A DNA stretch of 64,000 nucleotides, taken from positions 18,207 to 82,206 of the forward strand of contig CAWJKF010000003.1 in assembly GCA_963843335.1 (NCBI GenBank), written 5' to 3'. The stretch is from an uncultured Chloroflexia bacterium (GTDB lineage: Bacteria > Chloroflexota > Limnocylindria > Limnocylindrales > CSP1-4). This document shows positions 248 through 64,000 of this stretch, one piece after another. A program made the translations under genes and the position numbers. Under the pieces are notes generated by a model. The model did not search any database. It was not told the origin of the DNA and saw only the letters and a program-made list of their open reading frames with translations. How positions within the stretch are numbered: position 1 is the first letter of the stretch; every line of letters starts with the position of its first letter.

Positions 248-1423
248 ATGGAAACGACCTGGCGCGCACACGATGTGCACCTGCCAGCACGACTGCAGGT
301 CGCGCTGCTGATCCTGACGCTCGTGCTCGCGGCTGTGGCCGGAGCAGTCCTGGTGGGGGCGCAGCTCCTGAGGACGGCCGGTCCTGATCGGTTGCCCCCC
401 GTCATGCCCGCGTTCGCCATGCCGCCGACCGCGTGCCCCGAGGGTACGGACCTGCCCAGTGGCGACATCGCGACCATCGCGGGGACCGGCGTGATCGCCA
501 GCACGGGCGACGGCGGTGCCGCGCTCGCGGCCGCGATCGCATCCTCATACAACATGATCGCGGTCGGCCCCGACGATGCCATCTACCTGTCGGACAGCGC
601 CGTCATCCGGCGCATCACGTCCGACGGCCGCATCACGGCGGTGGCCGGACCAACGACCCACGCGCCGTTCGTGACCCCGACAGGCCTGGCGTTCGCGGCG
701 GACGGCAGCCTCTACATCGCGGACTTCACGACGAGCCACATCTGGAAGCTCGCTGAGGACGGATCGATCACCAGCGTCGCTGGTACGGGTGTCAGTGGCT
801 CGGCAGGCAACGACGGACCGGCCACCGAAGCCCAGATCCAGCCCGCGCAGGTCGCTGTCGGTCCGCTTGGTGACCTCTACTTCGATGACTCCAACAGCTA
901 CCGGACCGTCGACCCCGCGGGCATCATCCGGGCGTTCGCCGGGACCGGCCAGGTCGGCTTCTCTGGCGACGATGGCCCGGCGGTCGACGCCAGGCTTGCC
1001 ACCAATGTGCTGGGGGTCGTCGCCGATGCGCAGGGCAACGTCTATGTCGGGGACCCGGACAACCATCGCATCCGGCGGGTGGATTCAGCGGGCATCGTCA
1101 CCACGTTCGCAGGGACCGGCCTGCCGGGCTACTCGGGTGACGGCGATCAGGCCGCGCAGGCTCAGATCGACCATCCGGTCACCATCACGGTCGACGATCT
1201 GGGCAACGTGTACTTCGCCGACCAGGGCAACTCGACGGTCCGGATGGTGGACCCGCACCGGGTGATCAGAACGGTTGCCGGCACAGGCCGCCCGGGTTTC
1301 TCCGGGGACTGCGGGCCAGCGACCACGGCGCAGCTCAACCGCCCTTACGGCCTCGCGGTCCGGGATGGCGTGGTGCTCATCGGGGACGAGGGGAACCACC
1401 GCATCCGCATGGTCGTGCCGTAG
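248..1423 (+). CDS. NHL-repeat protein with an N-terminal transmembrane anchor
   Basis: Start METTW within ORF 158..1423. Hydrophobic helix LQVALLILTLVLAAVAG. Repeated NHL signatures (GDPDNHRIRRVD, YFADQGNSTVRMVD, GDEGNHRIRMV). Confidence 0.7.
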   Translation: METTWRAHDVHLPARLQVALLILTLVLAAVAGAVLVGAQLLRTAGPDRLPPVMPAFAMPPTACPEGTDLPSGDIATIAGTGVIASTGDGGAALAAAIASSYNMIAVGPDDAIYLSDSAVIRRITSDGRITAVAGPTTHAPFVTPTGLAFAADGSLYIADFTTSHIWKLAEDGSITSVAGTGVSGSAGNDGPATEAQIQPAQVAVGPLGDLYFDDSNSYRTVDPAGIIRAFAGTGQVGFSGDDGPAVDARLATNVLGVVADAQGNVYVGDPDNHRIRRVDSAGIVTTFAGTGLPGYSGDGDQAAQAQIDHPVTITVDDLGNVYFADQGNSTVRMVDPHRVIRTVAGTGRPGFSGDCGPATTAQLNRPYGLAVRDGVVLIGDEGNHRIRMVVP

Positions 1424-2519: not shown

Positions 2520-3272
2520 TCAGGCCGCGGCGTCCCCTCGATCCGGCGGCGCCTGGGTGGCCACCACCGTCCGTCCGGCCCGGGGTGCCGGTCGGGTCGC
2601 GGCGGGTGCCCGGCGGAGGGCGACCGCGAGCACGATGCGGTAGATGGTCAGGAAGACCACCGTCGCGGTCAGCAGCAGGTAGCCCCAGAAGGCCCACGGG
2701 GCGCCCGTGTCGGTGCCCGCCATGAGGCCATGTGCCGTGGCGCCCAGGAAGGCGAGGAACGTCACGTAGTGGAGGGTCCGCCAGCGCTTCTGGCCGATGC
2801 GCTTGCGCAGCGAGAAGCTCGCGATGACGACGATGGTGAGCACCAGCGACAGCTGCCCGAGGCCGACCCACAGCGGCCGGTAGGGGCCCGTGAAGGGGAG
2901 CAGCAGCTCGGCGATGGTGAACGGCACGCTGTGGTCGAGCGTGAGCATCGCGGCGTGGACGAGGGCGAGCCCGAGGCCGATGGCCGAGAGGTCCTGGTGG
3001 AGCGTGAACGAGACCGTCCGGTGGGCGAACGCGTCGAGGATGCCGGTCGAGAGCAGCAGGCCGTAGATGACCGAGCCGGCGAGCACGAGGTAGGCGAGGA
3101 GGCCGAGCAGCCGGGTGGCGTACCAGGGGATGCGCTCCTGCTCCGCGGTCACCCAGGTGCGCACGGCATCGAGGGCACCGCCGCCGGTCGCGGCGAGGAC
3201 CACGACGATGGCCGCGAGGAACACCGCCCAGCGGAGCGGCCGGGTCCGGGGGTCGAGGCCGCGGTACCTCAT
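2520..3272 (-). CDS. ferric-reductase-like (MsrQ-like) di-heme transmembrane protein
   Basis: 6-TM protein with paired His on two helices (HQDLSAIGLGLALVHAAM and HYVTFLAFLGATAHGLMAG), typical of the ferric reductase transmembrane domain. Overlaps the apbE stop by 4 bp. Confidence 0.7.
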   Translation of the reverse strand: MRYRGLDPRTRPLRWAVFLAAIVVVLAATGGGALDAVRTWVTAEQERIPWYATRLLGLLAYLVLAGSVIYGLLLSTGILDAFAHRTVSFTLHQDLSAIGLGLALVHAAMLTLDHSVPFTIAELLLPFTGPYRPLWVGLGQLSLVLTIVVIASFSLRKRIGQKRWRTLHYVTFLAFLGATAHGLMAGTDTGAPWAFWGYLLLTATVVFLTIYRIVLAVALRRAPAATRPAPRAGRTVVATQAPPDRGDAAA

Positions 3273-4273
3273 GCCAGCCAGCCGAGGGTGCCGGGGGTCG
3301 CGACCGTGCCGCCGGAGTCCAGCAGCAGGATGGCGCCCCGGACGCCGGACCGGTCGAGGAGGGCGAGGGCGTCGTCCGAGCCGGCGATGACCGCCGCCTT
3401 GGCCAGCACCTCCGCCGCGCGGGCACTGCCCGCGATGACCGTCGCCTGGACGACATCGGTGACCGCGGGCCGGCGCGTCCGGGGATCGATGAGATGGTGG
3501 CGCGCGGAGCCGTCGGCGCCGGCCGGCCAGCGATGGACGCTCGTGCCCGATGTGGCGATGCCGAGCAGCGGGCCCGCGATGCGCTCGTCGAGGCGGATGA
3601 CGGCGAGCGGACCCGGGGCACCGGGGCGGGGGTCGGCGACCGCGATGTCCCAGGCGCTGTCCGCGTCGATGCGCAGCGCGATGTCCCCGTCGGCATCGAC
3701 CATCGCCGCGGGGTAGCGCCCGAGGAGCGCGAGGGCCCGGTCGGCGATCCAGCCCTTGGCCACGCCGTCGAGGTCGAAGCGGCAGCGCCCCCGGCGCACC
3801 ACCCGCCCGCCGCGGGCCCCGCGGACCAGGTGCCAGCGGGGTCGTGCCGGGTCATCGACGGGTCCCGCGTGGGTCATGTCGAGCCCCGACCCGGCCGCGA
3901 GGCGCGCGTCGAGGAGCGTCACGTCGAGGAGGCCGGGCGCGCTGTCGAGCGCCCGCTCGGCCCAGTCGAGCACCGCGGCGAGCGTCGGGCGGACCGGCGT
4001 CGATGGCCGGCCCGGGTCGCGGTTGAGTGCCGCGAGGTCGGAGGTCGTCGTGAAACGGGTGAGCCGGGCGGCCCAGCGGTCCACCCGGCGTGCCACGCGA
4101 TCGAGGTCCCGGGTCGCCTCGCCCGCATCGGGTGCACTCCCCGCGACCCGCATGTCGAGGCTGCCGCCCATGGCCGGCACGCTGAGCGTCCACTCCTCCC
4201 GGAGGAGCGGACCGGCTGCCGGGCTGGCCGTGTCAGCGAATGCCGCCACGCGCCACGCGGCTGCGATGGACAT
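3269..4273 (-). CDS. apbE: FAD:protein FMN transferase (ApbE family)
   Basis: ApbE motifs HHLIDPRTRRP and DLDGVAKGW, and the overall ApbE length. Confidence 0.8.
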   Translation of the reverse strand: MSIAAAWRVAAFADTASPAAGPLLREEWTLSVPAMGGSLDMRVAGSAPDAGEATRDLDRVARRVDRWAARLTRFTTTSDLAALNRDPGRPSTPVRPTLAAVLDWAERALDSAPGLLDVTLLDARLAAGSGLDMTHAGPVDDPARPRWHLVRGARGGRVVRRGRCRFDLDGVAKGWIADRALALLGRYPAAMVDADGDIALRIDADSAWDIAVADPRPGAPGPLAVIRLDERIAGPLLGIATSGTSVHRWPAGADGSARHHLIDPRTRRPAVTDVVQATVIAGSARAAEVLAKAAVIAGSDDALALLDRSGVRGAILLLDSGGTVATPGTLGWLA

Positions 4274-4279
4274 CGGGTC

Positions 4280-4732
4280 TTAGCCTCCCGATTGCCGGGT
4301 CCTGGTCACCACCTTGTGGATCACGACCCGCCGGGTCTGCGCCGGGTGCCCGGCGACCCGGGTGACGACCACACGGGGCGGCGGCACCGCGCCAGCGATG
4401 ACCTTGGCGCCCTTCGGGGCCTTCTCGCCTGGCTTCAGATGGACGTACCGGACCTTGTGCTTGACGATGACCGCGGGTCGGGCCGTGGCGATGGTCTCGA
4501 TCGAGGCGGCGTCGGCGGCACCATCGGCGGCGATGGCATCGGCCGACGGCGCGGGGAACCGGACCAGCCCGGCGGCCATGATGGAGACGGCCGCGATGGT
4601 CCCGGCCCCGAGGGCGAGGCGCATCGGCCGGGGATCGGGCCGCGCCTTGGGAGCGGCCGGGGCAGGGTGGAGGGCGGTCGGCGCCGACCGAGGCGCCGCA
4701 GCCGGGGCCGGGCGTGGGTCCTCGCCGGCCAT
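4280..4732 (-). CDS. exported/membrane-anchored Lys/Val-rich protein, paralogous to the upstream gene
   Basis: Start ATG overlaps the upstream stop (TGATG coupling at 4730-4734). Hydrophobic segment TIAAVSIMAAGLV. Repeated VxHKVV/KV motifs shared with 4732..5142. Confidence 0.45.
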   Translation of the reverse strand: MAGEDPRPAPAAAPRSAPTALHPAPAAPKARPDPRPMRLALGAGTIAAVSIMAAGLVRFPAPSADAIAADGAADAASIETIATARPAVIVKHKVRYVHLKPGEKAPKGAKVIAGAVPPPRVVVTRVAGHPAQTRRVVIHKVVTRTRQSGG

Positions 4733-5142
4733 CAGTCGTCACCGCCGTCGTGCTCGCCACCACCGTCATGCTCGTGGCCGTCGTCGTCGCCCTCGTCGTC
4801 GCCGTGGTGCTTGCTTGGCACGACCTTGGTCACATGCACGACCTTGACCTTCGGACGCTGCGTGGCGGCCGGGGTCGGGGCACGCTTGGTGACGTGGATG
4901 ACCTTCGGCTTGGGCGCGGGACGGACGTAGACCGTCGTGGTCTCGACACGCGTGATGGGCTTGATGGAGGCGGCGGGAGTGGCAGGCGCCGCCAGCACGG
5001 CTGGGTCGGTGACTGATGCCAGGTCCAGCTGCTCGGCGTTGGCCGGGGCTGCCGTTGGCCCCAGGCCAGTGGCCGCGAAGCCGATAGCCAGGATCGCGGC
5101 AGCAGCTACGCTGCCAAGGATGACGGCGAGGCGGTGGATCAT
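4732..5142 (-). CDS. exported protein with a His/Asp/Gly-rich acidic C-terminal tail (putative metal-binding)
   Basis: N-terminal signal/TM (LAVILGSVAAAAILAIGFAA). KVIHVTK/KVKVVHVTK repeats. C-terminus HHGDDEGDDDGHEHDGGGEHDGGDD. Confidence 0.5.
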   Translation of the reverse strand: MIHRLAVILGSVAAAAILAIGFAATGLGPTAAPANAEQLDLASVTDPAVLAAPATPAASIKPITRVETTTVYVRPAPKPKVIHVTKRAPTPAATQRPKVKVVHVTKVVPSKHHGDDEGDDDGHEHDGGGEHDGGDD

Positions 5143-8316: not shown

Positions 8317-9195
8317 CTACATCGATCGGAACGAGCGATCCTCATCGGTGACGAGCCGATACAGCTGTCGCTGGCCCGCGAGGCCCTTGAGCTCGTGGAC
8401 GCCTGCGTCCGCGAGCAGCAGCCCGGAACCCTCCAGCAGGTCGTGGGTGGTGGATGAGACCAGGACGTCGTCCGCGTCGGCCACGGACATGACGCGCGCT
8501 GCGGCATGGACCGCGACGCCACGGGCATCCTGGCCCACGAACTCGACCTCGCCCGTGTGGATGCCGACCCGGATGGCGATGCCCAGGGCGTGTGCCGCGG
8601 TCGTCATGGCTGCCCCGCAGCGGACCGCGCGGGTGGCGCCATCGAAGACGGCCAGGAAGCCATCGCCGGTGGTCTTGACCTCCCGGCCGCGGTGCATGTT
8701 GAGCTGCTCGCGCATCAGCCGGTTGTGCTCGAGTAGCAGGTCACGCCAACGCGAGTCGCCGACCCGGCCGAGCATCCCTGTCGAGTCGACGATGTCCGAG
8801 AACAGGATGGTGGCCACGGTCCGCTCGCCGGACGCATCGAGCATCGACGTGATGGGCCGTCCGCTCTGCGATTCGATGGTGATCCAGGGCACATCCCCGA
8901 CCACCCAGGCATCGTGGCCCGGTGGGATCTCGTAGACACCGCCCGGGCCGATGTCCATCGTCTGCCCATCCTCCATGACCACGCGGCACACCCCTGACAC
9001 CGAGAATCCCAGGTGATGGATGGGACAGCTCTGGGCGCCCATGAGCGGGCCCAGGTCGACTGACCATCGCCAGCCGGGTTCGAATGTGGCGTGCGCGATG
9101 ACCGCCTCGCCCATCTGGACCGTCTCGAAGCGTGCCTTCGGGACCTCGCGGACATCATCCGGCTCGTCGAAGTGCTTCACCTGCAAGCGTGGCAT
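8317..9195 (-). CDS. cupin-domain / class III adenylate-guanylate cyclase fusion protein
   Basis: Start MPRLQVKHF. Cupin_2-like N-terminus (ATFEPGWRWS...HHLGFSVSGVCRVV). Cyclase catalytic core (ILFSDIVDST...KTTGDGFLAVFD...GIHTGEV). Confidence 0.75.
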   Translation of the reverse strand: MPRLQVKHFDEPDDVREVPKARFETVQMGEAVIAHATFEPGWRWSVDLGPLMGAQSCPIHHLGFSVSGVCRVVMEDGQTMDIGPGGVYEIPPGHDAWVVGDVPWITIESQSGRPITSMLDASGERTVATILFSDIVDSTGMLGRVGDSRWRDLLLEHNRLMREQLNMHRGREVKTTGDGFLAVFDGATRAVRCGAAMTTAAHALGIAIRVGIHTGEVEFVGQDARGVAVHAAARVMSVADADDVLVSSTTHDLLEGSGLLLADAGVHELKGLAGQRQLYRLVTDEDRSFRSM

Positions 9196-9286
9196 GTCCC
9201 GAGTATGCGCGTCGCCTATGCGCCTGCGGCAGTCCCAGGGCGACCCCGAGCGCCGGGGCGTGCCCGGCTGTGCCAGCATCCGCCCC

Positions 9287-9511
9287 ATGGTCGACCCGAC
9301 GCTCATCTCCGCCGCAGGGGCCTGGACCGGCAACGTCGACTTCGGTGACCTCGGCATCGGTGGCCGATGGGCAGATGTCGCGGTCGCGTCGCTGAGCCTT
9401 GACTGGGGCTTCGGGGAGGGGCACCAGCAGGAGCTGTTCGATGCCTATGGCATCGACCCGGATGCGGAACGGATCCGCTACTATCGGGCGCTCTGGGAGC
9501 TCGAGTCATGA
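9287..9511 (+). pseudogene. C-terminal fragment of an aminoglycoside phosphotransferase (APH) family gene
   Basis: VDFGDLGIGGRWADVAVASL...LFDAYGI..DAERIRYYRALWEL follows the APH(3') C-terminal pattern (IDxGRLGVADRYQD...LYGI...RIAFYRLLDE). The N-terminal two thirds, including the HGD catalytic loop, are absent; upstream sequence is occupied by the cyclase gene on the other strand. Confidence 0.45.
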
Positions 9512-9603: not shown

Positions 9604-10092
9604 ATGTCGTACACGATCCGTGCTCTCACTGCGATGGTCGCGATCGCGCTCATGGCAGCCCTGGTCACCGTCGCCCCGGCCGCCGGCCAGTCACCGATGG
9701 CGTCCATGCCCGGGACCCCCAGCGCGGCACCCTGTGCTTCGCCGATGGTCGGCCCGTCGCCGATGGCCCCCGCGGCATCGATGGTCGCCACGTCGCTGGC
9801 ACCAAGCCTGGCGACTCCCTGCGTCTCTCCGGCACCGGTGGCCGCTGCGGCCGCAGTCTCCATCAAGGACTTCTCCTTCCAGCCGGCGACCATCAGCGTG
9901 CCGGTCGGCGGCACCGTCACCTGGACGAACAACGACACCACGGGGCATACCGTCACCGCCGACGATGGCTCGTTCGACAGTGGGACCGTCTCGCCCGGGG
10001 CGACCTTCAGCCAGACGTTCGCGACGGCGGGCACGTTCACGTACCACTGCAACATCCATCCGTCGATGACGGCATCCATCACGGTGCAGTAG
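9604..10092 (+). CDS. secreted cupredoxin (amicyanin/pseudoazurin-like type-1 copper protein)
   Basis: Signal peptide plus Ala/Pro-rich linker. Copper ligands H (TGHTV), C-x2-H-x2-M (YHCNIHPSM). Confidence 0.75.
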   Translation: MSYTIRALTAMVAIALMAALVTVAPAAGQSPMASMPGTPSAAPCASPMVGPSPMAPAASMVATSLAPSLATPCVSPAPVAAAAAVSIKDFSFQPATISVPVGGTVTWTNNDTTGHTVTADDGSFDSGTVSPGATFSQTFATAGTFTYHCNIHPSMTASITVQ

Positions 10093-16597: not shown

Positions 16598-17155
16598 TCA
16601 GACGGTCGGCACCTTGATGACGATCGTCTCGCAGCCGCCGACCACGACATCGGTCGGGTCCACGACCGCCCGATCGTGGGCGCCGTCGCCACAATCGATG
16701 GTGTCGATGGCGCCATCACCGGCGGCATGGATGAGGTCGTTGCCCGGCCCGCCGTTGAGGACATCCGCGCCGGCGCCGCCCCACAGCTCGTCACGGCCCC
16801 ACTGGCCATTGAGCGTGTCCGCGCCGGGGCCACCCAGGAGCAGGTCGTTGCCGGCGCCGCCGTTGAGCGTGTCGTCGCCGACCCCGCCGGCGAGCCGGTC
16901 ATTGCCCCGGTTGCCGTTGAGGGTGTCATTGCCCTTCTCGCCGAAGAGCCAGTCCCGGCCGCGGTTGCCATTGAGCGTGTCGTTGCCGGCGCGTCCCCAC
17001 ACGGTATCGCCGCCTCGCCGCGCGGAGATGACGTCGTCGGCGGGCGTGCCGACGATGCGGTCGGCATGCCACGTGGGGTGATGGGCACCGTGGGCCAGAG
17101 TCGTTGCCGGGGCCGCGATGGCGACCGCAGCGAAGACGGCTGGCACGGCCAGCAT
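16598..17155 (-). CDS. secreted calcium-binding protein with hemolysin-type (RTX-like) nonapeptide repeats
   Basis: Signal peptide MLAVPAVFAAVAIAAPATTLAHG. At least 5 tandem GxxGxDxL repeats (GNDTLNGNRGRD, GNDTLNGNRGND, GDDTLNGGAGND, GADTLNGQWGRD, GADVLNGGPGND). Confidence 0.65.
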   Translation of the reverse strand: MLAVPAVFAAVAIAAPATTLAHGAHHPTWHADRIVGTPADDVISARRGGDTVWGRAGNDTLNGNRGRDWLFGEKGNDTLNGNRGNDRLAGGVGDDTLNGGAGNDLLLGGPGADTLNGQWGRDELWGGAGADVLNGGPGNDLIHAAGDGAIDTIDCGDGAHDRAVVDPTDVVVGGCETIVIKVPTV

Positions 17156-17309
17156 GCGGAGCTTGTTCGTCAGGTGCACGGCTCGCACCCTCCTCTCTGG
17201 TGGCACGTCGCGCCACATGGAGTCAGCCGGCGATCCGGCTCACTCCTCTATCGAGGGACGGACGGTCCAAAACGTCTCGATCCTGCGGATCGACGTGCCC
17301 CGCGAACCG

Positions 17310-57286: not shown

Positions 57287-58255
57287 CTATCGCGCCACAG
57301 TGACGGGCGTCAGGCCGTCCGCGGCGCGGTACAGCGCCTCGATGGTGCGCGCCTGACCCAGGGCGTCCGCGCGACCTAGCAGTGGCGGCCGTTCGCCACG
57401 GATGGCGGCGCCCATGTCCTCGAGCTCCAGCTGGTAGGGGTTCGTTGGCTCGACCATGATCCGCTCGTCGTCGAGGTAGAGGACGCCGGTCGTGGAGTGC
57501 CACGGATCGGGCAGCAGGAGCCGCCCATCCCGGCCGATGACCTCGAGCGTCTCGTGCGTGGTGGAGTCGAAGCCACAGGTGAACGTGGCCATGACATCGT
57601 CCGCGAAGCGCATCAGCCCGGACATCCGACGCTCGACGCCGGCCGCGTCCAGGAGCTGCTCCGCCATGACCCGCTCCGGCTCCCCGGCGACGAGCCTGGC
57701 GCCGCTCACGCAGTAGCAGCCGACATCCATGAGCGACCCACCATCGAGGTGACCCGCGACCCGGACATCGGTCTCGGCCCCGATGACGTAGCTGAAGGTG
57801 GACCGGATGGTGCGCACCGGACCGATGCGGGGCAGCAGCTCCAGGAGGCGTCGTACCTGGGGCGTGTGGCGCCACATGAACGCCTCCTCGAGCACCAGGC
57901 CTGCCTGCTCGGCCGCATCGAACGCCGCGTCGACCTCCGCCGGTCGGCGGGTGTACGGCTTCTCGCACAGCACGTGCTTGCCCGCTGCGAGCGAGTGCAT
58001 CGTCCATTCGTGATGGAGGGAGTTGGGCAGGCTGATGTACACCGCGTCCACGTCCGGGTCCGCCAGCAGCGCCTCGTAGCTGCCATGTGCGCGGCCGATG
58101 CCGTTGTCGCGGGCGAACTGGCGAGCACGCTCATCGGTGCGGCTGCCCACCGCCACCACCTCCAGGGCGCTCGCCGACCTGGCGCCCGCCAACAGCTTGC
58201 GGCAGATGTTGCCGGTACCCAGCAGCCCCCAGCGGATGCGCGTTGGCGTGGTCAT
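57287..58255 (-). CDS. Gfo/Idh/MocA-family oxidoreductase
   Basis: Start MTTPTRIRWGLLGTGNI (NAD-binding). EKP motif (HVLCEKP). Confidence 0.75.
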   Translation of the reverse strand: MTTPTRIRWGLLGTGNICRKLLAGARSASALEVVAVGSRTDERARQFARDNGIGRAHGSYEALLADPDVDAVYISLPNSLHHEWTMHSLAAGKHVLCEKPYTRRPAEVDAAFDAAEQAGLVLEEAFMWRHTPQVRRLLELLPRIGPVRTIRSTFSYVIGAETDVRVAGHLDGGSLMDVGCYCVSGARLVAGEPERVMAEQLLDAAGVERRMSGLMRFADDVMATFTCGFDSTTHETLEVIGRDGRLLLPDPWHSTTGVLYLDDERIMVEPTNPYQLELEDMGAAIRGERPPLLGRADALGQARTIEALYRAADGLTPVTVAR

Positions 58256-58821
58256 GATCGACTCCCTCCTGGGCTGGCCGCGGGTGGCACGATCGTCGCC
58301 AGGTCGGCCACCAGGCCTGCCGCCGAGAATGGTCCAAGGCTGAAGGCCCGCACGATGCCGTCGCCGTCGATGAAGTAGCTCTGGGGGACCCCCAGCCCGA
58401 TGTAGTCGCGCCACACCACATCGGCGTCATCGAGCAGCATCGGCCACGTGGCGCCCTGCTGCTGGGCGAACGCGCGGGCATTGGGGCCGCTGTCATCATG
58501 CACGATGCCCAGGATCTCGAGGCCCCGGTCGCGGTACTCCCCATAGGCTCCCACGAGGAGCGGGAACTCGCCCCGGCAGGGGACGCACCAGCTGGCCCAG
58601 ATGTTGACCACGACCGGACGGCCCGCGTAGTCCGCGAGCGTCACGGCATTGCCGTCCAGATCCTTGAGGGCGATGGCCGGGGCCGGCTTGCCCAGGAGCG
58701 GTGAGCCACCGACGACGATGGGCCCGGACCCTGTCGGCGATGCGCTCGGCGCCGTCCCGCCGAGGGGCACGAAGAGGGCGACGGCAAGCACGACCACGAC
58801 GACCGCCGCGGCGGCCACCAT
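58252..58821 (-). CDS. TlpA/ResA-like membrane-anchored thiol:disulfide oxidoreductase
   Basis: TM anchor. WASWCVPC active site. Confidence 0.7.
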   Translation of the reverse strand: MVAAAAVVVVVLAVALFVPLGGTAPSASPTGSGPIVVGGSPLLGKPAPAIALKDLDGNAVTLADYAGRPVVVNIWASWCVPCRGEFPLLVGAYGEYRDRGLEILGIVHDDSGPNARAFAQQQGATWPMLLDDADVVWRDYIGLGVPQSYFIDGDGIVRAFSLGPFSAAGLVADLATIVPPAASPGGSRS

Positions 58822-58847: not shown

Positions 58848-59840
58848 TCAGGATGTCGGCGGCGATCCCGCCTTGACGAGCAGCGTCCCGGTCATCGGCG
58901 GATGGATGGTGCAGATGTAGGTGTATGTACCGGCGGGCAGCGGCGGCAGCTGGTACTTGATGGTCGCCACACCCGTGATGTCCTTGCCCGCGAACAGGTA
59001 CGTCCCCGGCGTTGCGGGGTCTTCCACGTGGACGTTGTGGGGCACGCCGTCCTGCTTGTTGTCGAACGTCAGGGTCACCGGGGTGTTGGCCGGGATCACG
59101 ATCTGGCCCTGGTCGAAGTGGGTCGCCGCCGAAGCGGACAGGTAGGGCGTGGTCGTCGCCGGCGGGCCCTGGTCACCGGCCGCGGCCTGCTTGGGCAGGA
59201 ACGTCAGCAGCCAGGGTCCGAGCGTGAGCACGATCGCGACCAGGGCGACACCCGCGAACACCGGCACCAGCTTGTGGGGGAACACCTTGACCGGGTCGCG
59301 GGTCACCGGCTCGGCCTCGTGGCCGGCTTCCACCTGCACGAACTCGCGGTTGGCGTCGATGTACCAGCCGGCGGCCGCGGCGAGGGCCATCACGACGCCC
59401 GCCAGGATGAGCAGGGGACCCAGGACAAGACCCAGGAACACGAAGAACAGGCCGATGGGCGCGAGGAAGGGCCACGGGCTGGGGCCGGGCATATGGATGC
59501 CCTCGGGGATGGCCACCGGCGCAGGTGCCACCTGGGTCTCGGCCACCAGCCGCAGGCCGTGGTCGTGGGCATCGATCTGCTCGTACTCGCGGTTGGCGTC
59601 CCGGTACCAGCCCGCAGCGCCGATGACCGCGATGAGCAGTCCCGTGACCGCGATGGGGATGTTCAGGAAGACGCCGCTACCGCCGCCGACCGCGAGCGAG
59701 AAGAAGATGAGCACGAGGCCGATGGGCGCCACGAACGGCCACAGGGAGCCGCTGGGCATGTGCACGCCGCTGGGGACCGGGCCCGCCGGCAGGGGCCGCG
59801 GCACGCGCGACGCGTTGTGCGCGGCGTTGCGATGCCACAT
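58848..59840 (-). CDS. tandem-duplicated cytochrome c oxidase subunit-IV-like (CtaF-like) membrane domain fused to a C-terminal cupredoxin
   Basis: Two repeats of WPFxAPIGL...TM...AGWYxDANREx. C-terminal type-1 copper domain (VPHNVHV...YTYICTIHPPMTGTL). Confidence 0.6.
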   Translation of the reverse strand: MWHRNAAHNASRVPRPLPAGPVPSGVHMPSGSLWPFVAPIGLVLIFFSLAVGGGSGVFLNIPIAVTGLLIAVIGAAGWYRDANREYEQIDAHDHGLRLVAETQVAPAPVAIPEGIHMPGPSPWPFLAPIGLFFVFLGLVLGPLLILAGVVMALAAAAGWYIDANREFVQVEAGHEAEPVTRDPVKVFPHKLVPVFAGVALVAIVLTLGPWLLTFLPKQAAAGDQGPPATTTPYLSASAATHFDQGQIVIPANTPVTLTFDNKQDGVPHNVHVEDPATPGTYLFAGKDITGVATIKYQLPPLPAGTYTYICTIHPPMTGTLLVKAGSPPTS

Positions 59841-60005
59841 CGCGACCAGGCCCAGCAGCGTCAGCAGCAGCAGCCCGAGGAACAGCAGCGGGATGTATTG
59901 CAGGAGCGTCGCCCAGAGGGGCGTGACGACCTGGCTGACGAGATCGAGGGTGGAGTTCCAGAGGATCCATGGTCGCCGATCAGCTCTGGAGGACCGGGTC
60001 GGTCC

Positions 60006-60221
60006 TCATACGTCGCGGGAGCCGCGGACCAGCACGGCCAGCCCGAACACCATCGAGACACCCGCGAGGATGAGCATCAGCACGCCGGTAAGGTCGAGGG
60101 TCCGACTCGTGCAGTGGGTCATCTCGGGAGCACAGGTGCCGGCACCCTGCGTGACGAAGTAGATGATGCCGACGAGCACGAAGAACGCCCCCACCACGAA
60201 GGTGTTCCGCCAGTTGAACAT
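60006..60221 (-). CDS. small two-helix membrane protein within the oxidase cluster
   Basis: 71-aa ORF with hydrophobic helices (FVVGAFFVLVGIIYFV and VLMLILAGVSMVFGLAVLV). Confidence 0.35.
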   Translation of the reverse strand: MFNWRNTFVVGAFFVLVGIIYFVTQGAGTCAPEMTHCTSRTLDLTGVLMLILAGVSMVFGLAVLVRGSRDV

Positions 60222-60236
60222 CGGCTGGTCTCCCGC

Positions 60237-60812
60237 TTACCGCAGCACGTAGATGGTCAGGAACAGGAACACCCAGACCACGTCCACGAAGTGCCAGTAG
60301 TAGTGGACCGCTTCCACGGCGACGTGGTGCTCCTTCGAGAACTGGCCACGCATGCCGCGCGCGAGCACGACCGCGATACCCACGATGCCGCCCAGGACGT
60401 GGGCGCCGTGGAAGCCCGTCATGACGTAGAACAACGAACCATAGACGCCGCTGTTGATGCCGAAGTCTTCCGTCGACACGAGCATGTAGTACTCGAACAT
60501 CATCAGGCACAGGAACGCGATGCCCAGGCCCAGCGTGACCGCGAGACCCCGGTTCATGCCCGTCCGATCACCCTTGCGGATCTGGTCGGTCGCCCACTGC
60601 ATCGTGAACGAACTGCTCACCAGGATGATGGTGATGAGCACCGACAGGCCCAGGCCGAAGAGGCCGCTGCCCTGCCAGCTGATGAACTCGGTGCCTTCCG
60701 GTGGCCAGACCGCCGCGGTCGCCCGGACGTTGAAGTAGACCCCGAACAGCGCCGCGAAGAACATGATCTCGCTGGCGATGAACAGGAGCATGCCCATGAG
60801 GGCGATGTCCAT
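60237..60812 (-). CDS. ctaE: cytochrome c oxidase subunit III
   Basis: COX3 pattern (FGVYFNVRA, YYMLVSTEDFGINSGVYGSLFYVMTGFHGAHV, YYWHFVDVVWVFLFL). Confidence 0.85.
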   Translation of the reverse strand: MDIALMGMLLFIASEIMFFAALFGVYFNVRATAAVWPPEGTEFISWQGSGLFGLGLSVLITIILVSSSFTMQWATDQIRKGDRTGMNRGLAVTLGLGIAFLCLMMFEYYMLVSTEDFGINSGVYGSLFYVMTGFHGAHVLGGIVGIAVVLARGMRGQFSKEHHVAVEAVHYYWHFVDVVWVFLFLTIYVLR

Positions 60813-60881
60813 GCCCTTGGAGCCGTGGCTGGAGTCGGTCTCGGAGTCCGTGGCCCGCGGTCAGGCCATCGACAGGTGCGG

Positions 60882-62534
60882 TCACTGGACGGACCCCTCC
60901 GTCGTGGCGAGGCTGGCGCTCGGGGCATGACCCGCGTTGGGGTGCTTCAAGTCGAACACGGGGCGCTCCGAGCGGACCGGCGGCAGGTGGTCGAAGTTGT
61001 AGACCGGTGGCGGGCTCGTCGTGGCCCACTCGAGGGTGTTGGCATCCCACGGGTCGTCACCGGCCTCGGCCGGCTTGCGCAACGTGCTGAACACGTTCCA
61101 CATGAAGAACATCACGCCCACCGCGATGACGAAGGCGCCGATGGTCGACAGGAAGTTGAGCTCGCTCCAACCCGCGTTTGCGGAGTAGTCGGCGATGCGC
61201 CGGATCATGCCGTCAAGGCCCAGGAGGTGCTGCGGGAAGAAGGCCAGGTTGGTGCCGATGAACAGCAGCCAGAACTGGACCTTGCCCAGCCGCTCGTCGA
61301 GCTTCCGTCCGGTCATCTTGGGGAACCAGTAGAACAGCGCCGCGAAGATGGCGAACACGGAGCCCGCGACCAGGACGTAGTGGATGTGCGAGACGACCCA
61401 GTAGGTGTCCTGGACCATGAAGTCGAAGGGCACGACCGCCAGGAACGCGCCGTCGAGGCCACCGATGAGGAACAGGGCGATGAAGCCGCACGCGTACAGC
61501 ATCGGCGTGTCGAAGCTGAGCTTGCCGCCCCACATCGTGGCCAGCCAGTTGAAGAACTTGATGCCCGTGGGCACCGCGATGAGGAACGTGAAGAAGCTGA
61601 AGAAGGGCAGGTACACCGCGCCCGTCGTGAACATGTGGTGGGCCCAGACCGTGAAGCCCAGGGCGCCGATGGACGCGGTGGCGATGACGAACGCCTTGTA
61701 GCCGAACAGCGGCTTTCGCGAGAACACAGGCACGATCTCGCTCACGATGCCGAAGGCCGGCAGGATGAGGATGTACACCTCCGGGTGACCGAAGAACCAG
61801 AACACGTGCTGCCACAGGATCGGGTTACCGCCGAGGGACGGCTCGAAGAAGCCACCGCCGTAGTTGCGGTCGATGAAGATCATCACCAGGCCCGCCGTGA
61901 CCACCGGGATGGAGAACAGCAGCAGGACGCTGGTGACGAGCTGGGCCCAGCAGAACATCGGCATCCGCAGCAGCCCCATGCCCGGAGCGCGCAGCCGGAA
62001 GATGGTCACCAGGAAGTTGATGGAACCCAGGATGGAGCTGATGCCGGTCATGATCAGGCCCAGCACCAGCAGGTTGACACCAGTCTCCGGTACGTGGGTG
62101 GACAGCGGCGCGTACATGGTCCAGCCGACCGGCGCACCGCCGAACAGGAACGATGACTCGATGAGCAGGCCGCCGGCGAGGAACACCCACAGCGAGAGGG
62201 CATTGACGCGCGGGAAGGCCATGTCCGCGGCGCCCACCTGGAGTGGCACCACGTAGTTGCCGAGGCCCGTGAGCATCGGCATCACGAACAGGAAGATCAT
62301 GTTGATGGCGTGCAGCCCGAAGATCGAGTTGTACGTCGCCTCGCTCACGAACTGCAGTCCGGGCGCCGCCAGCTCGCTCCGGATGACGAGCGCGAGCACG
62401 CCACCGACGAGGAAGAAGAAGAAGCTCGTGATCACGTACATGATCCCGATCTTCTTGTGGTCGACCGTGGTGATCCAGTCGTAGACAGCAGCCCTGCGGT
62501 AGGACTGGGCCTGCGGGAGCGCGGTGGAAGCCAT
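60882..62534 (-). CDS. ctaD: cytochrome c oxidase subunit I
   Basis: COX1 pattern (WFFGHPEVYILILPAFGIVSEIVPVFS, HHMFTTG, YVVSHIHYVL). Confidence 0.9.
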   Translation of the reverse strand: MASTALPQAQSYRRAAVYDWITTVDHKKIGIMYVITSFFFFLVGGVLALVIRSELAAPGLQFVSEATYNSIFGLHAINMIFLFVMPMLTGLGNYVVPLQVGAADMAFPRVNALSLWVFLAGGLLIESSFLFGGAPVGWTMYAPLSTHVPETGVNLLVLGLIMTGISSILGSINFLVTIFRLRAPGMGLLRMPMFCWAQLVTSVLLLFSIPVVTAGLVMIFIDRNYGGGFFEPSLGGNPILWQHVFWFFGHPEVYILILPAFGIVSEIVPVFSRKPLFGYKAFVIATASIGALGFTVWAHHMFTTGAVYLPFFSFFTFLIAVPTGIKFFNWLATMWGGKLSFDTPMLYACGFIALFLIGGLDGAFLAVVPFDFMVQDTYWVVSHIHYVLVAGSVFAIFAALFYWFPKMTGRKLDERLGKVQFWLLFIGTNLAFFPQHLLGLDGMIRRIADYSANAGWSELNFLSTIGAFVIAVGVMFFMWNVFSTLRKPAEAGDDPWDANTLEWATTSPPPVYNFDHLPPVRSERPVFDLKHPNAGHAPSASLATTEGSVQ

Positions 62535-62546
62535 GCCGTTCCTCGC

Positions 62547-63698
62547 TTACTGGACCGTGAGCGTGCCGGTCATGTTGGCATGCACGCTGCAGTAGAAGGT
62601 GTATGTCCCTGCCTTGAGGGCCGGGGCCTTGTAGACCGCGTTCTGGCCCGCCTGGGCGATGGGCAGCCCGATCCAGTCGGTGCCGTCGGGGTTGGCGCCC
62701 TTGATGGACACGTTGTGGGGGTTCACCGGGTCCAGGTTGGCGAAGTCGATGGTCAGAGGCTGATCGGCCGGTGCGCTCAGCGTGGACTGGTCGAACTTGA
62801 GGTTGTCCGAGGCGCTGACCGAGAGTGTGGTCGCGGCCGGCACGCCGGGGCCCTCGCTGGGCTGCGGCTCCGGTGTCGCGGCTGCCTTGACCTGCTCGTC
62901 CGCGACCCACTGGTCGAACGTGGCCCGGTCGACGGCACGCACCGTGAAGTACATGTCCGAGTGGGAGAGGCCACAGAACTCCGCGCATTGACCACCGAAG
63001 GTGCCTTGCTCGAGCACCTTGACCTGGAACTCGTTGATGCGCCCGGGGACCACGTCCAGCTTCCGGAAGAACTGGGGCACGTAGAACGAGTGGATGACGT
63101 CATTGGCGTGCAGCCGGATGTCGATGGTCTCGTTGACCGGCACGACCATCTCCGGACCGTCCTTGCCGGCACCCGTGAAGCTCAGGCCCTGGTCCTTGTA
63201 GTCGAAGGTCCATTGCCACTGGAAGCCGGTGACGTCCACGGTGACCGCGGGGTTCGCGGCGACGGCGTCGACCTTGAGCAGCACGCTCGTCGAGACGAGG
63301 AAGAGCGCCAGCACGACCACCGCGGGGATGGCCGTCCAGAGGACCTCGAGCACATTGTTGCCGTGGCGCTGGCCCGGCAGCTCCGTGTCGCCACGCTTGC
63401 GTCGGAAGCGGATGGCGACGGTGATCAGGAGCCCCTCGACGAGCACGAAGACGATGCACGCGATGATGAAGATCGGGAGGTAGAGGTCCGCCGCCAGGCG
63501 TCCCTGCTCCGTGACCACGTTGCCCGGAAGGATGGCGGGCGTGCCAGCGCTCGTCGGATGGTCGTCACTGCGCGTCGCACAGCCCAACAGCACCAGGGCC
63601 GCCAGCGTCGCGAGACCGATCCACGACAGGTACCGGGTCGCGGCGCGAGCCGCGGAGATGACGCGCAAGGACTCCCCCGTGATTCCTGGGCTGGGCAA
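62547..63698 (-). CDS. ctaC: cytochrome c oxidase subunit II with an extra C-terminal cupredoxin domain
   Basis: CuA site HSFYVPQF...CAEFCGLSHSDMYF. C-terminal type-1 copper domain (NPHNVSI...YTFYCSVHANMTGTLTV). Confidence 0.85.
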   Translation of the reverse strand: MPSPGITGESLRVISAARAATRYLSWIGLATLAALVLLGCATRSDDHPTSAGTPAILPGNVVTEQGRLAADLYLPIFIIACIVFVLVEGLLITVAIRFRRKRGDTELPGQRHGNNVLEVLWTAIPAVVVLALFLVSTSVLLKVDAVAANPAVTVDVTGFQWQWTFDYKDQGLSFTGAGKDGPEMVVPVNETIDIRLHANDVIHSFYVPQFFRKLDVVPGRINEFQVKVLEQGTFGGQCAEFCGLSHSDMYFTVRAVDRATFDQWVADEQVKAAATPEPQPSEGPGVPAATTLSVSASDNLKFDQSTLSAPADQPLTIDFANLDPVNPHNVSIKGANPDGTDWIGLPIAQAGQNAVYKAPALKAGTYTFYCSVHANMTGTLTVQ

Positions 63699-63770
63699 AA
63701 GACCGGCCTATGATACGGCGTGATGTCCCGCTCCGTAGCCCGTACTCCGGCGCGGTCGCGCGCCCATCGG

Positions 63771-64000
63771 ATGTCAGGCGTCGCGCACGCCGGGCGAGCA
63801 CTTCCTGGTCACCCCGGCCGGCCCAGGCTGGCGGCCACTTCTGCCGGCCTGGCCCTGGTGGCCGTCCTGGTGCTCCCCGCGGTCGCCGCCGCGCACGGCA
63901 TCGCGCCCGTTCCCCCGGACCTCGGGATGCTGCTGACGGGCTGGTCGTTCGACATCGAGGTCTGGCTGCCGCTGCTCCTGGCGGCGTGGGCGTACCTGAC
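63771..64000 (+). CDS. ctaG: partial CtaG / copper-resistance-D-like cytochrome oxidase assembly factor (3' end outside window)
   Basis: Signal/TM LALVAVLVLPAVAAAHG, then GMLLTGWSFDIEVWLPLLLAAWAYL, typical of caa3-type CtaG N-termini. Confidence 0.45.
   Translation, partial: MSGVAHAGRALPGHPGRPRLAATSAGLALVAVLVLPAVAAAHGIAPVPPDLGMLLTGWSFDIEVWLPLLLAAWAYL

Follow-up and report, generated by a model that had tools for sequence, protein, structure and literature searches.

By what route do electrons reach the CuA centre of an oxidase whose subunit II ends in a blue copper domain? The question is raised by an operon at the 3' end of a 64-kb stretch of DNA, which we call the window, from an uncultured soil member of the Limnocylindria (Chloroflexota; contig CAWJKF010000003.1, assembly GCA_963843335.1). 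The Limnocylindria are an abundant, uncultured class of soil and fresh water. Haem-copper oxidases can be grouped by the way electrons are supplied to CuA: by soluble cytochrome c, by a fused cytochrome c (caa3), by the di-haem QcrC of a supercomplex or, in some archaea and possibly in Chloroflexus, by a free blue-copper protein. A first-pass annotation of the window suggested that blue copper here takes the place of a fused or partner cytochrome c. Our own proposal is that the operon probably encodes what we term a "Cu-aa3" oxidase, an A1-type aa3 enzyme of monoderm Limnocylindria in which tethered type-1 copper domains would serve for electron entry in place of the haem c domain.

The operon is a single one on the minus strand and comprises, in order, ctaC, ctaD, ctaE, an open reading frame (ORF) of 71 aa, an accessory gene and tlpA. 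CtaD (60882..62534) matches PF00115 (E=2.5e-158) and scores 706.5 against the TIGR02891 (CtaD_CoxA) cut-off of 670.75; the helix-VI GHPEVY glutamate motif of A1-type enzymes is present, read in the translation as 'FFGHPEVYILILP'. CtaC (62547..63698) scores 185.8 against a cut-off of 147.7 with TIGR02866 (CoxB). Judged by its CtaD and its CuA-bearing subunit II, the enzyme is thus classified as an A-family (A1) aa3-type haem-copper oxygen reductase, in agreement with the first-pass annotation. The further description of the oxidase as "actinobacterial-type" did not hold. The homologues belong to Chloroflexota and Limnocylindria, and the three NCBIfam models for the actinobacterial aa3 subunits CtaD, CtaC and CtaE (NF050116, NF050117 and NF050119) all score below their cut-offs (712.7 against 880, 213.5 against 250 and 158.4 against 190, respectively).

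CtaC consists of a lipoprotein-type N-terminus, two transmembrane (TM) helices, a CuA domain, a Pro-rich linker of about 20 aa and a type-1 copper domain at residues ∼290-383. Pfam recognises COX2_TM, COX2 (E=1.7e-21) and Cupredoxin_1 (residues 292-382, E=2.3e-12) in this order. Both the CuA ligands (H203, C238, E240, C242, H246 and M249) and the type-1 ligands (H328, C370, H373 and M376) are invariant across 32 aligned homologues, with identities as low as 51%, so that the complete type-1 copper domain reported after the CuA domain is borne out. There is no CxxCH motif in CtaC, and the protein is therefore not a caa3 subunit II, which is defined by a fused haem c domain. The best match to subunit II in the PDB is 2yev_B from Thermus thermophilus (E=2.3e-36), and no solved structure aligns past the COX2 part of CtaC. 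The true start of ctaC is most likely the TTG at 63668, which is preceded by the Shine-Dalgarno sequence GGGGGAG; translation from this codon gives 373 aa, the same length as the 96%-identical homologue P0121.

A second copper domain is carried by the accessory membrane protein, whose gene occupies 58848..59970, although ORF callers place it at 58848..59840 (330 aa). Cupredoxin_1 matches residues 237-322 of the shorter call (E=3.8e-10), and its type-1 ligands H268, C310, H313 and M316, in the same numbering, are invariant in sets of 13 and of 36 homologues. Those homologues are 365-385 aa long and begin MD(L/P)W..LDL..Q.VTP.W; the window contains the corresponding N-terminus in the reading frame of the called ORF, but without a start codon. 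Comparison with the 92%-identical locus L002 locates the break in the frame: the window reads ATGGATCCTCTGG where L002 reads ATGGATCTCTGG, with one extra C after ATGGAT, falling within 59960..59970, and the real start is the ATG at 59970. As a result of the extra C, the 330-aa call, like the equally shortened public gene call P0001 (330 aa), is missing about 43 N-terminal residues and one TM helix from a protein of ∼374 aa. Given the many such indels in related loci from long-read metagenome-assembled genomes (MAGs), the extra C is likely to be an assembly error. In several of these MAG loci (L002, L004, L012, L034, L057 and L068) frameshifts split ctaC, ctaD or ctaE into many pieces, and in L002 and L004 they also join the accessory gene to tlpA (P0010, 570 aa); domain architectures drawn from these assemblies consequently need care.

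The full-length accessory protein runs from an N-terminal helix through TM0, two helical hairpins, TM5 and a linker of about 20 aa to the cupredoxin, and the hairpins form two clear internal tandem repeats. They had been annotated as CtaF-like. A profile built from 18 repeat units matches the first ∼60 residues, that is helices I-II, of 7-helix COX3 chains in the PDB, the best match being to residues 6-65 of Rhodobacter sphaeroides COX3 (1m56_C, E=7e-7), with mammalian and yeast COX3 at ∼1e-5 to 1e-3 (bovine ∼1e-5). The same profile matches the junction of the subunit I+III fusion in Thermus caa3 and the C-terminal extra helices of subunit I in Bacillus aa3-600, and it finds not a single actinobacterial CtaF chain in the PDB at E<=10. 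When 36 members of the accessory family were searched with Pfam, PF12270 (CtaF) was found in 27 (E<=0.1), always over its C-terminal hairpin, and PF00510 (COX3) in 11. By this profile evidence, the repeats are the hairpin that is common to the C-terminal half of CtaF and to COX3 helices I-II. We therefore considered and rejected membership of the accessory protein in the CtaF family: the window protein reaches 14.6 bits against the PF12270 cut-off of 26.9, over profile positions 83-125 of 132 only, and no CtaF chain was among the PDB matches. The tandem repeats and the paralogous cupredoxin thus stand as first described, while the CtaF label, a fair lead, covers this one hairpin only.

The identity of the repeats bears on ctaE (60237..60812), which encodes a short, 5-helix subunit III. 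CtaE matches PF00510 at profile positions 78-255 of 258 only; helices I-II, which in a 7-helix COX3 are contiguous with helices III-VII in one chain, are missing from it and are split onto the accessory protein. Since CtaE covers only this part of COX3, and the repeats match helices I-II, the accessory protein carries twice over the hairpin that CtaE is without. Between the two genes lies the 71-aa, two-helix ORF (60006..60221), whose position is conserved in most related loci. Homologues of it were found in neither Pfam, NCBIfam nor the PDB, including by profile searches of the PDB and Pfam, and from its position we presume it to encode a small oxidase subunit. A split CtaF, with this ORF as its N-terminal half, was considered and found no support, as the profile recovered no PDB or Pfam relative. 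The ORF is ∼60 aa long in relatives; the 71 aa here reflect an insertion of about 11 residues, with two cysteines, in the inter-helix loop (GAGTCAPEMTHCTSRTLDLTG in place of GDGRTIDRTG).

The cupredoxins of CtaC and the accessory protein are 38% identical to each other and share the ligand loop C-x2-H-x2-M, which is of amicyanin length. Searching solved structures with the accessory profile returns amicyanin first (E∼1e-6), with the ligands aligned, and the best sequence matches of the cupredoxins are to electron-transfer proteins. AlphaFold2 models both domains with a predicted local distance difference test (pLDDT) above 90; the top structural match of the accessory cupredoxin is auracyanin B (1ov8), and CupA and EfeO-type cupredoxins are also among the structural neighbours. 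In these models and alignments the fused domains have both defining features of type-1 cupredoxins, the Greek-key beta-sandwich fold and the His/Cys/His/Met ligand set. Each follows an outward-directed segment, and both are accordingly predicted, from positive-inside loops and the COX3 topology in the alignments, to lie on the CuA side of the membrane.

A third cupredoxin, unlinked to the operon, is encoded on the plus strand at 9604..10092. The first-pass annotation had described it as a standalone secreted paralog, and it does have a signal peptide and matches to Copper-bind (E=3.5e-11) and Cupredoxin_1 (E=1.4e-10), though its relationship to the fused domains is distant. A tether of ∼60 residues, rich in Pro, Ala, Ser and Met, precedes its copper domain, and its gene adjoins one with an adenylate/guanylate cyclase domain (8317..9357). 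On these features it may be a mobile or tethered carrier.

To see how widely the arrangement is conserved, we turned to contigs drawn from one genome per species. A relative is encoded in 138 stretches, of which 80 were kept, and presence or absence of the copper domains was scored in the 63 loci where both genes could be judged; a further locus, L066, is cut by a contig end. The loci are not phylogenetically independent, and the counts should be read accordingly. Both cupredoxins are present in 47 of the 63, a diverged CtaC cupredoxin alone in four, and the accessory cupredoxin alone in none; loci with neither are taken up below. Perfect co-occurrence of the two domains is ruled out by the four loci that keep the diverged CtaC copy alone. 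The gene order ctaC-ctaD-ctaE-small ORF-accessory-tlpA is kept in dozens of species-level genomes, and the operon is near-universal in the sampled class. Locus titles are nearly all Limnocylindria, Limnocylindrales or other uncultured Chloroflexota, with the two exceptions of Gaiellaceae and Rubrivivax, and every named homologue of the CtaC-type and accessory proteins is from Chloroflexota. Public data (NCBI, ENA, JGI and Logan) hold more than 120 clusters of COX2+cupredoxin proteins and more than 400 accessory homologues, which are labelled only "cytochrome c oxidase subunit II", "plastocyanin" or "cupredoxin domain-containing protein".

Searching with the cupredoxin domain itself recovered several COX2+cupredoxin clusters at 50% identity and many multi-cupredoxin proteins, all metagenomic; the diverse COX2+cupredoxin representatives are metagenome records only, one of them labelled as a Chloroflexi bin. 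Among the other metagenome proteins are P0378 (285 aa), in which a single-copy CtaF (PF12270, 32.8 bits) is joined to a cupredoxin; P0407 (1422 aa), with up to 13 tandem cupredoxin stretches; and P0426 (288 aa), a fusion of cytochrome c to a cupredoxin of the same type. The last of these indicates that the cupredoxin type of this oxidase does pair with haem c. Where the accessory cupredoxin is missing, another gene is seen between ctaC and ctaD on the opposite strand, in L055 (6179..7045, minus strand) and similarly in L056, L061 and L080. In L055 it encodes a 288-aa secreted protein with two near-identical repeats of ∼125 aa that include His/Cys/His/Met-containing motifs, and the product may be another copper protein.

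If blue copper feeds CuA, what feeds the blue copper? As had been reported, there is no CxxCH motif in the cluster. Across the whole window three ORFs of at least 60 aa contain one, all in frames without coding-like third-position GC, and none is a credible haem c gene. An unfiltered scan reaching 10 kb to either side of the operon found no CxxCH gene in L001, L002 and L006, the closest relatives, where the 6 kb upstream of ctaC hold CtaG, a CtaA-CtaB fusion and unrelated genes. The picture is different in more distant relatives. In L070 (1..5987) a divergent ctaG is common to the cupredoxin-oxidase operon and to a qcr operon that encodes, next to ctaG, a di-haem cytochrome c (two CxxCH), then QcrA (QcrA_N and Rieske), cytochrome b, a COX2 with no cupredoxin and COX1. 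In L027 a qcrC (438..1295, 65% identical) lies 1 kb upstream of the cupredoxin-ctaC, and on a Limnocylindrales contig, L081 (3157..9133), qcrC, qcrA, qcrB, COX2 and COX1 form one cluster, in which the second COX2 is again cupredoxin-less. By its gene content, the Limnocylindria lineage is thus not free of cytochrome c; some 500 QcrC homologues were found. The cytochrome c gene that the first-pass annotation had named as a possible counter-indication just outside the window is thus absent from L001 and L002 and present in L070 and L027; its idea of blue copper in place of a partner cytochrome c agrees with the window and the closest relatives, and is weakened by the qcrCAB operons of the class, which adjoin this operon in L070 and L027.

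Starting from the gene content, domain architecture, ligand conservation, fold, topology and class-wide conservation described above, we propose the following working of the Cu-aa3 oxidase. One copper domain would extend on a flexible linker from the C-terminal end of subunit II, where caa3 oxidases have their cytochrome c domain. The other would be held on a lineage-specific accessory subunit, whose membrane part would supply in trans, and twice, the helices missing from the 5-helix CtaE. Electrons would pass from an upstream donor to type-1 copper (possibly from the accessory copper to that of subunit II) and then through CuA and haem a to the haem a3-CuB site. The probable upstream donor would be either a bcc complex, through its di-haem QcrC, or a free, tethered cupredoxin like the one at 9604..10092. 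TlpA and CtaG would serve the assembly of the copper centres. For a monoderm cell, which has no confined periplasm, tethered carriers would be a sensible solution. It is from sequence that we infer the accessory protein to be a physical subunit, the copper sites to be redox-active, and the direction of electron flow and the donor to be as given.

Several observations weigh against this scheme. The search for a donor in the source genome covered the 64-kb window only, and the source species is uncultured. In 11 of the 63 loci neither cupredoxin is present and CtaC ends in an acidic tail, again without CxxCH; the domains are therefore modular and dispensable for the oxidase core. A single evolutionary event, or a small number of them, may account for the pattern of co-occurrence without functional coupling. 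Operon position and hairpin homology are the two grounds for supposing that the accessory protein would assemble with the oxidase, and the inter-domain geometry of the AlphaFold2 models is unreliable, with predicted template modelling (pTM) scores of 0.60 and 0.43. A more elaborate version of the scheme is a copper-only relay, from accessory copper to subunit II copper to CuA, in which the double COX3-hairpin subunit would dock the oxidase to a quinol-oxidising partner; blue copper would then bridge the supercomplex in the role that di-haem QcrC plays in Actinobacteria, and some lineages might lack c-type haem entirely. The fact that the accessory cupredoxin never occurs without the subunit II one fits a relay ending at subunit II, and we put this version forward tentatively, as a doubtful extension.

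We weighed the tethered-entry scheme against four other explanations. One would go further in dispensing with haem: blue copper might replace c-type cytochromes wholly between quinol oxidation and the oxidase, for example from alternative complex III (ACIII) or a c-less bc complex via the cupredoxin(s) to CuA. Such chains are known in archaeal lineages (PMC9038741, PMC8305020), and the standalone tethered cupredoxin and the want of a credible CxxCH gene in the window, or of any within ±10 kb of the operon in L001, L002 and L006, are what it would predict. Only a small part of the genome was inspected, however, and the class does encode di-haem QcrC in qcrCAB operons, twice beside this very operon, so that we think a wholly c-free chain unlikely. 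The presence in the class of a second, cupredoxin-less oxidase linked to qcrCAB also allows a different division of labour, in which the quinol-to-O2 chain would run on that enzyme and leave the cupredoxin oxidase free to act as acceptor for a specific extracytoplasmic oxidation, as amicyanin does for methylamine dehydrogenase or rusticyanin and AcoP in Fe(II) oxidation. The amicyanin length of the ligand loop, and the occurrence of the domain type in large multi-cupredoxin proteins, are compatible with such a role. However, no conserved dehydrogenase or metal-oxidation genes stand beside the operon, whose neighbours in the window are sugar-transport and oxidoreductase genes, and its near-universality in the sampled class is as expected for a housekeeping oxidase; a dedicated oxidation role seems to us unlikely as well.

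The copper domains might, alternatively, be chaperones or stores for the assembly of CuA and CuB and not redox carriers. The setting suits this explanation, in that TlpA-like and CtaG genes flank the operon with the CtaA-CtaB fusion nearby in relatives, the CuA chaperone PCuAC has a cupredoxin-like fold (PMC9145763), and CupA and EfeO-type proteins are among the structural neighbours. The ligands do not: the invariant type-1 His/Cys/His/Met set with its C-x2-H-x2-M loop is unlike the H(M)X10MX21HXM motif of PCuAC (PMC9145763). Moreover, the closest sequence matches are electron-transfer proteins and the closest structure is auracyanin B, and the permanent covalent tethering of two chaperones to a finished enzyme is without known precedent, all of which makes a chaperone role very unlikely. 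Finally, the fusions could be products of assembly, frameshift or gene calling, a concern the first-pass annotation had itself raised, together with that of missing ligands. The source assemblies do contain indels, one of which breaks the start of the accessory gene in the window while others fuse or split genes in L002, L004, L012 and L034. Nevertheless, the same fused architectures recur in the 47 loci and, across the four public sources, in independent protein clusters that number more than 120 for CtaC and more than 400 for the accessory protein, in continuous reading frames with conserved linkers, and the ligands are invariant; we regard the chance of an artefact as negligible. Electron entry through tethered blue copper, with a donor that may itself contain haem c, remains the explanation we prefer.

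How does such an enzyme compare with known systems? One close counterpart is caa3 subunit II (2yev_B of T. thermophilus; CtaC of Bacillus subtilis), which is likewise of the A family and has a one-electron carrier domain on a linker after the CuA domain; Bacillus CtaC shares in addition the lipoprotein-type N-terminus and a Caa3_CtaG family gene nearby. The carrier in caa3 is haem c, whereas here it is a type-1 cupredoxin, and here a second carrier is found on another subunit. Each accessory repeat aligns to helices I-II of the canonical 7-helix COX3 and to the C-terminal hairpin of CtaF (PF12270), but unlike in those proteins the hairpin occurs twice over on a chain of its own, with two extra helices and the cupredoxin at its flanks. 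Auracyanin B of Chloroflexus aurantiacus (1ov8) differs in being free-standing and not covalently attached, and the loop here is the shorter, amicyanin-like C-x2-H-x2-M. Sulfocyanin (SoxE) of the SoxM supercomplex and AcoP of Acidithiobacillus are separate gene products in acidophiles, with marginal sequence similarity to the domains described here.

The halocyanin/CbaD fusion OE_4073R of Halobacterium salinarum resembles the accessory protein, in that it joins a blue-copper carrier to one of the small membrane subunits of a terminal oxidase, and it has been taken as evidence for a copper protein as oxidase donor (PMC8305020). It is, however, archaeal, uncharacterised and of the ba3 type, its membrane subunit is unrelated, and its subunit II is not described as carrying a parallel fusion (PMC8305020). 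Haloarchaea, Thaumarchaeota and relatives, Sulfolobus and Chloroflexus all have blue-copper proteins that are either established or proposed as donors to haem-copper oxidases (PMC8305020, PMC9038741, PMC3150298). Because auracyanin is already the expected blue-copper partner of respiratory complexes in Chloroflexota (PMC3150298), the wiring is less exotic than the first-pass annotation supposed. In the full-text literature that we searched we found no account of a type-1 copper domain fused to a bacterial A-type subunit II, nor any description of the double-hairpin/cupredoxin subunit or of Limnocylindria oxidases.

The genes flanking the oxidase core were found as first described. The last gene of the operon, a position conserved in related loci, is tlpA (58252..58821), which encodes a membrane-anchored, TlpA/ResA-like thiol-disulfide oxidoreductase with a CVPC motif and matches to AhpC-TSA/Redoxin and to NF002854 (ResA); its product probably keeps copper-site cysteines reduced. 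On the plus strand, divergent from ctaC, the window takes in the N-terminal part of a Caa3_CtaG-type assembly factor, from 63720 to the window's own end at 64000. The factor was recognised by synteny: the ORF is 74% identical to the syntenic one in L002, and those in L001 and L021 match PF09678 at ∼1e-77. Beyond the region covered by the window, L001 and L021 encode, 1-4 kb upstream of the operon, a CtaA-CtaB fusion (haem A/haem O synthase), in which COX15/CtaA and UbiA/CtaB form one protein of 640-720 aa (L001 1834..3756; L021 1074..3224). Elsewhere in the window, at 3269..5142 on the minus strand, a gene for an ApbE-family flavin transferase precedes two small ORFs, of 150 and 136 aa, in which Pfam finds nothing; they may together form a flavinylated extracytoplasmic redox module. 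A 206-aa protein, encoded at 16598..17218 on the minus strand, consists of little else than RTX calcium-binding nonapeptide repeats, with six HemolysinCabind stretches.

If our reading is correct, Cu-aa3 would form a clean new category of oxidase beside caa3, with blue copper where haem c sits, and the fusion would be direct genetic evidence for blue copper feeding an aa3 oxidase in Chloroflexota, as has long been proposed for auracyanin. The second copper domain would then belong to a new subunit, one that makes good the missing COX3 helices as well, and the splitting and duplication of this hairpin bear on how subunit III and CtaF relate to each other and to the extra helices found on subunit I in other oxidases. 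The soluble domains are small and expressible, so that their potentials, and electron transfer from them to CuA, are directly testable.

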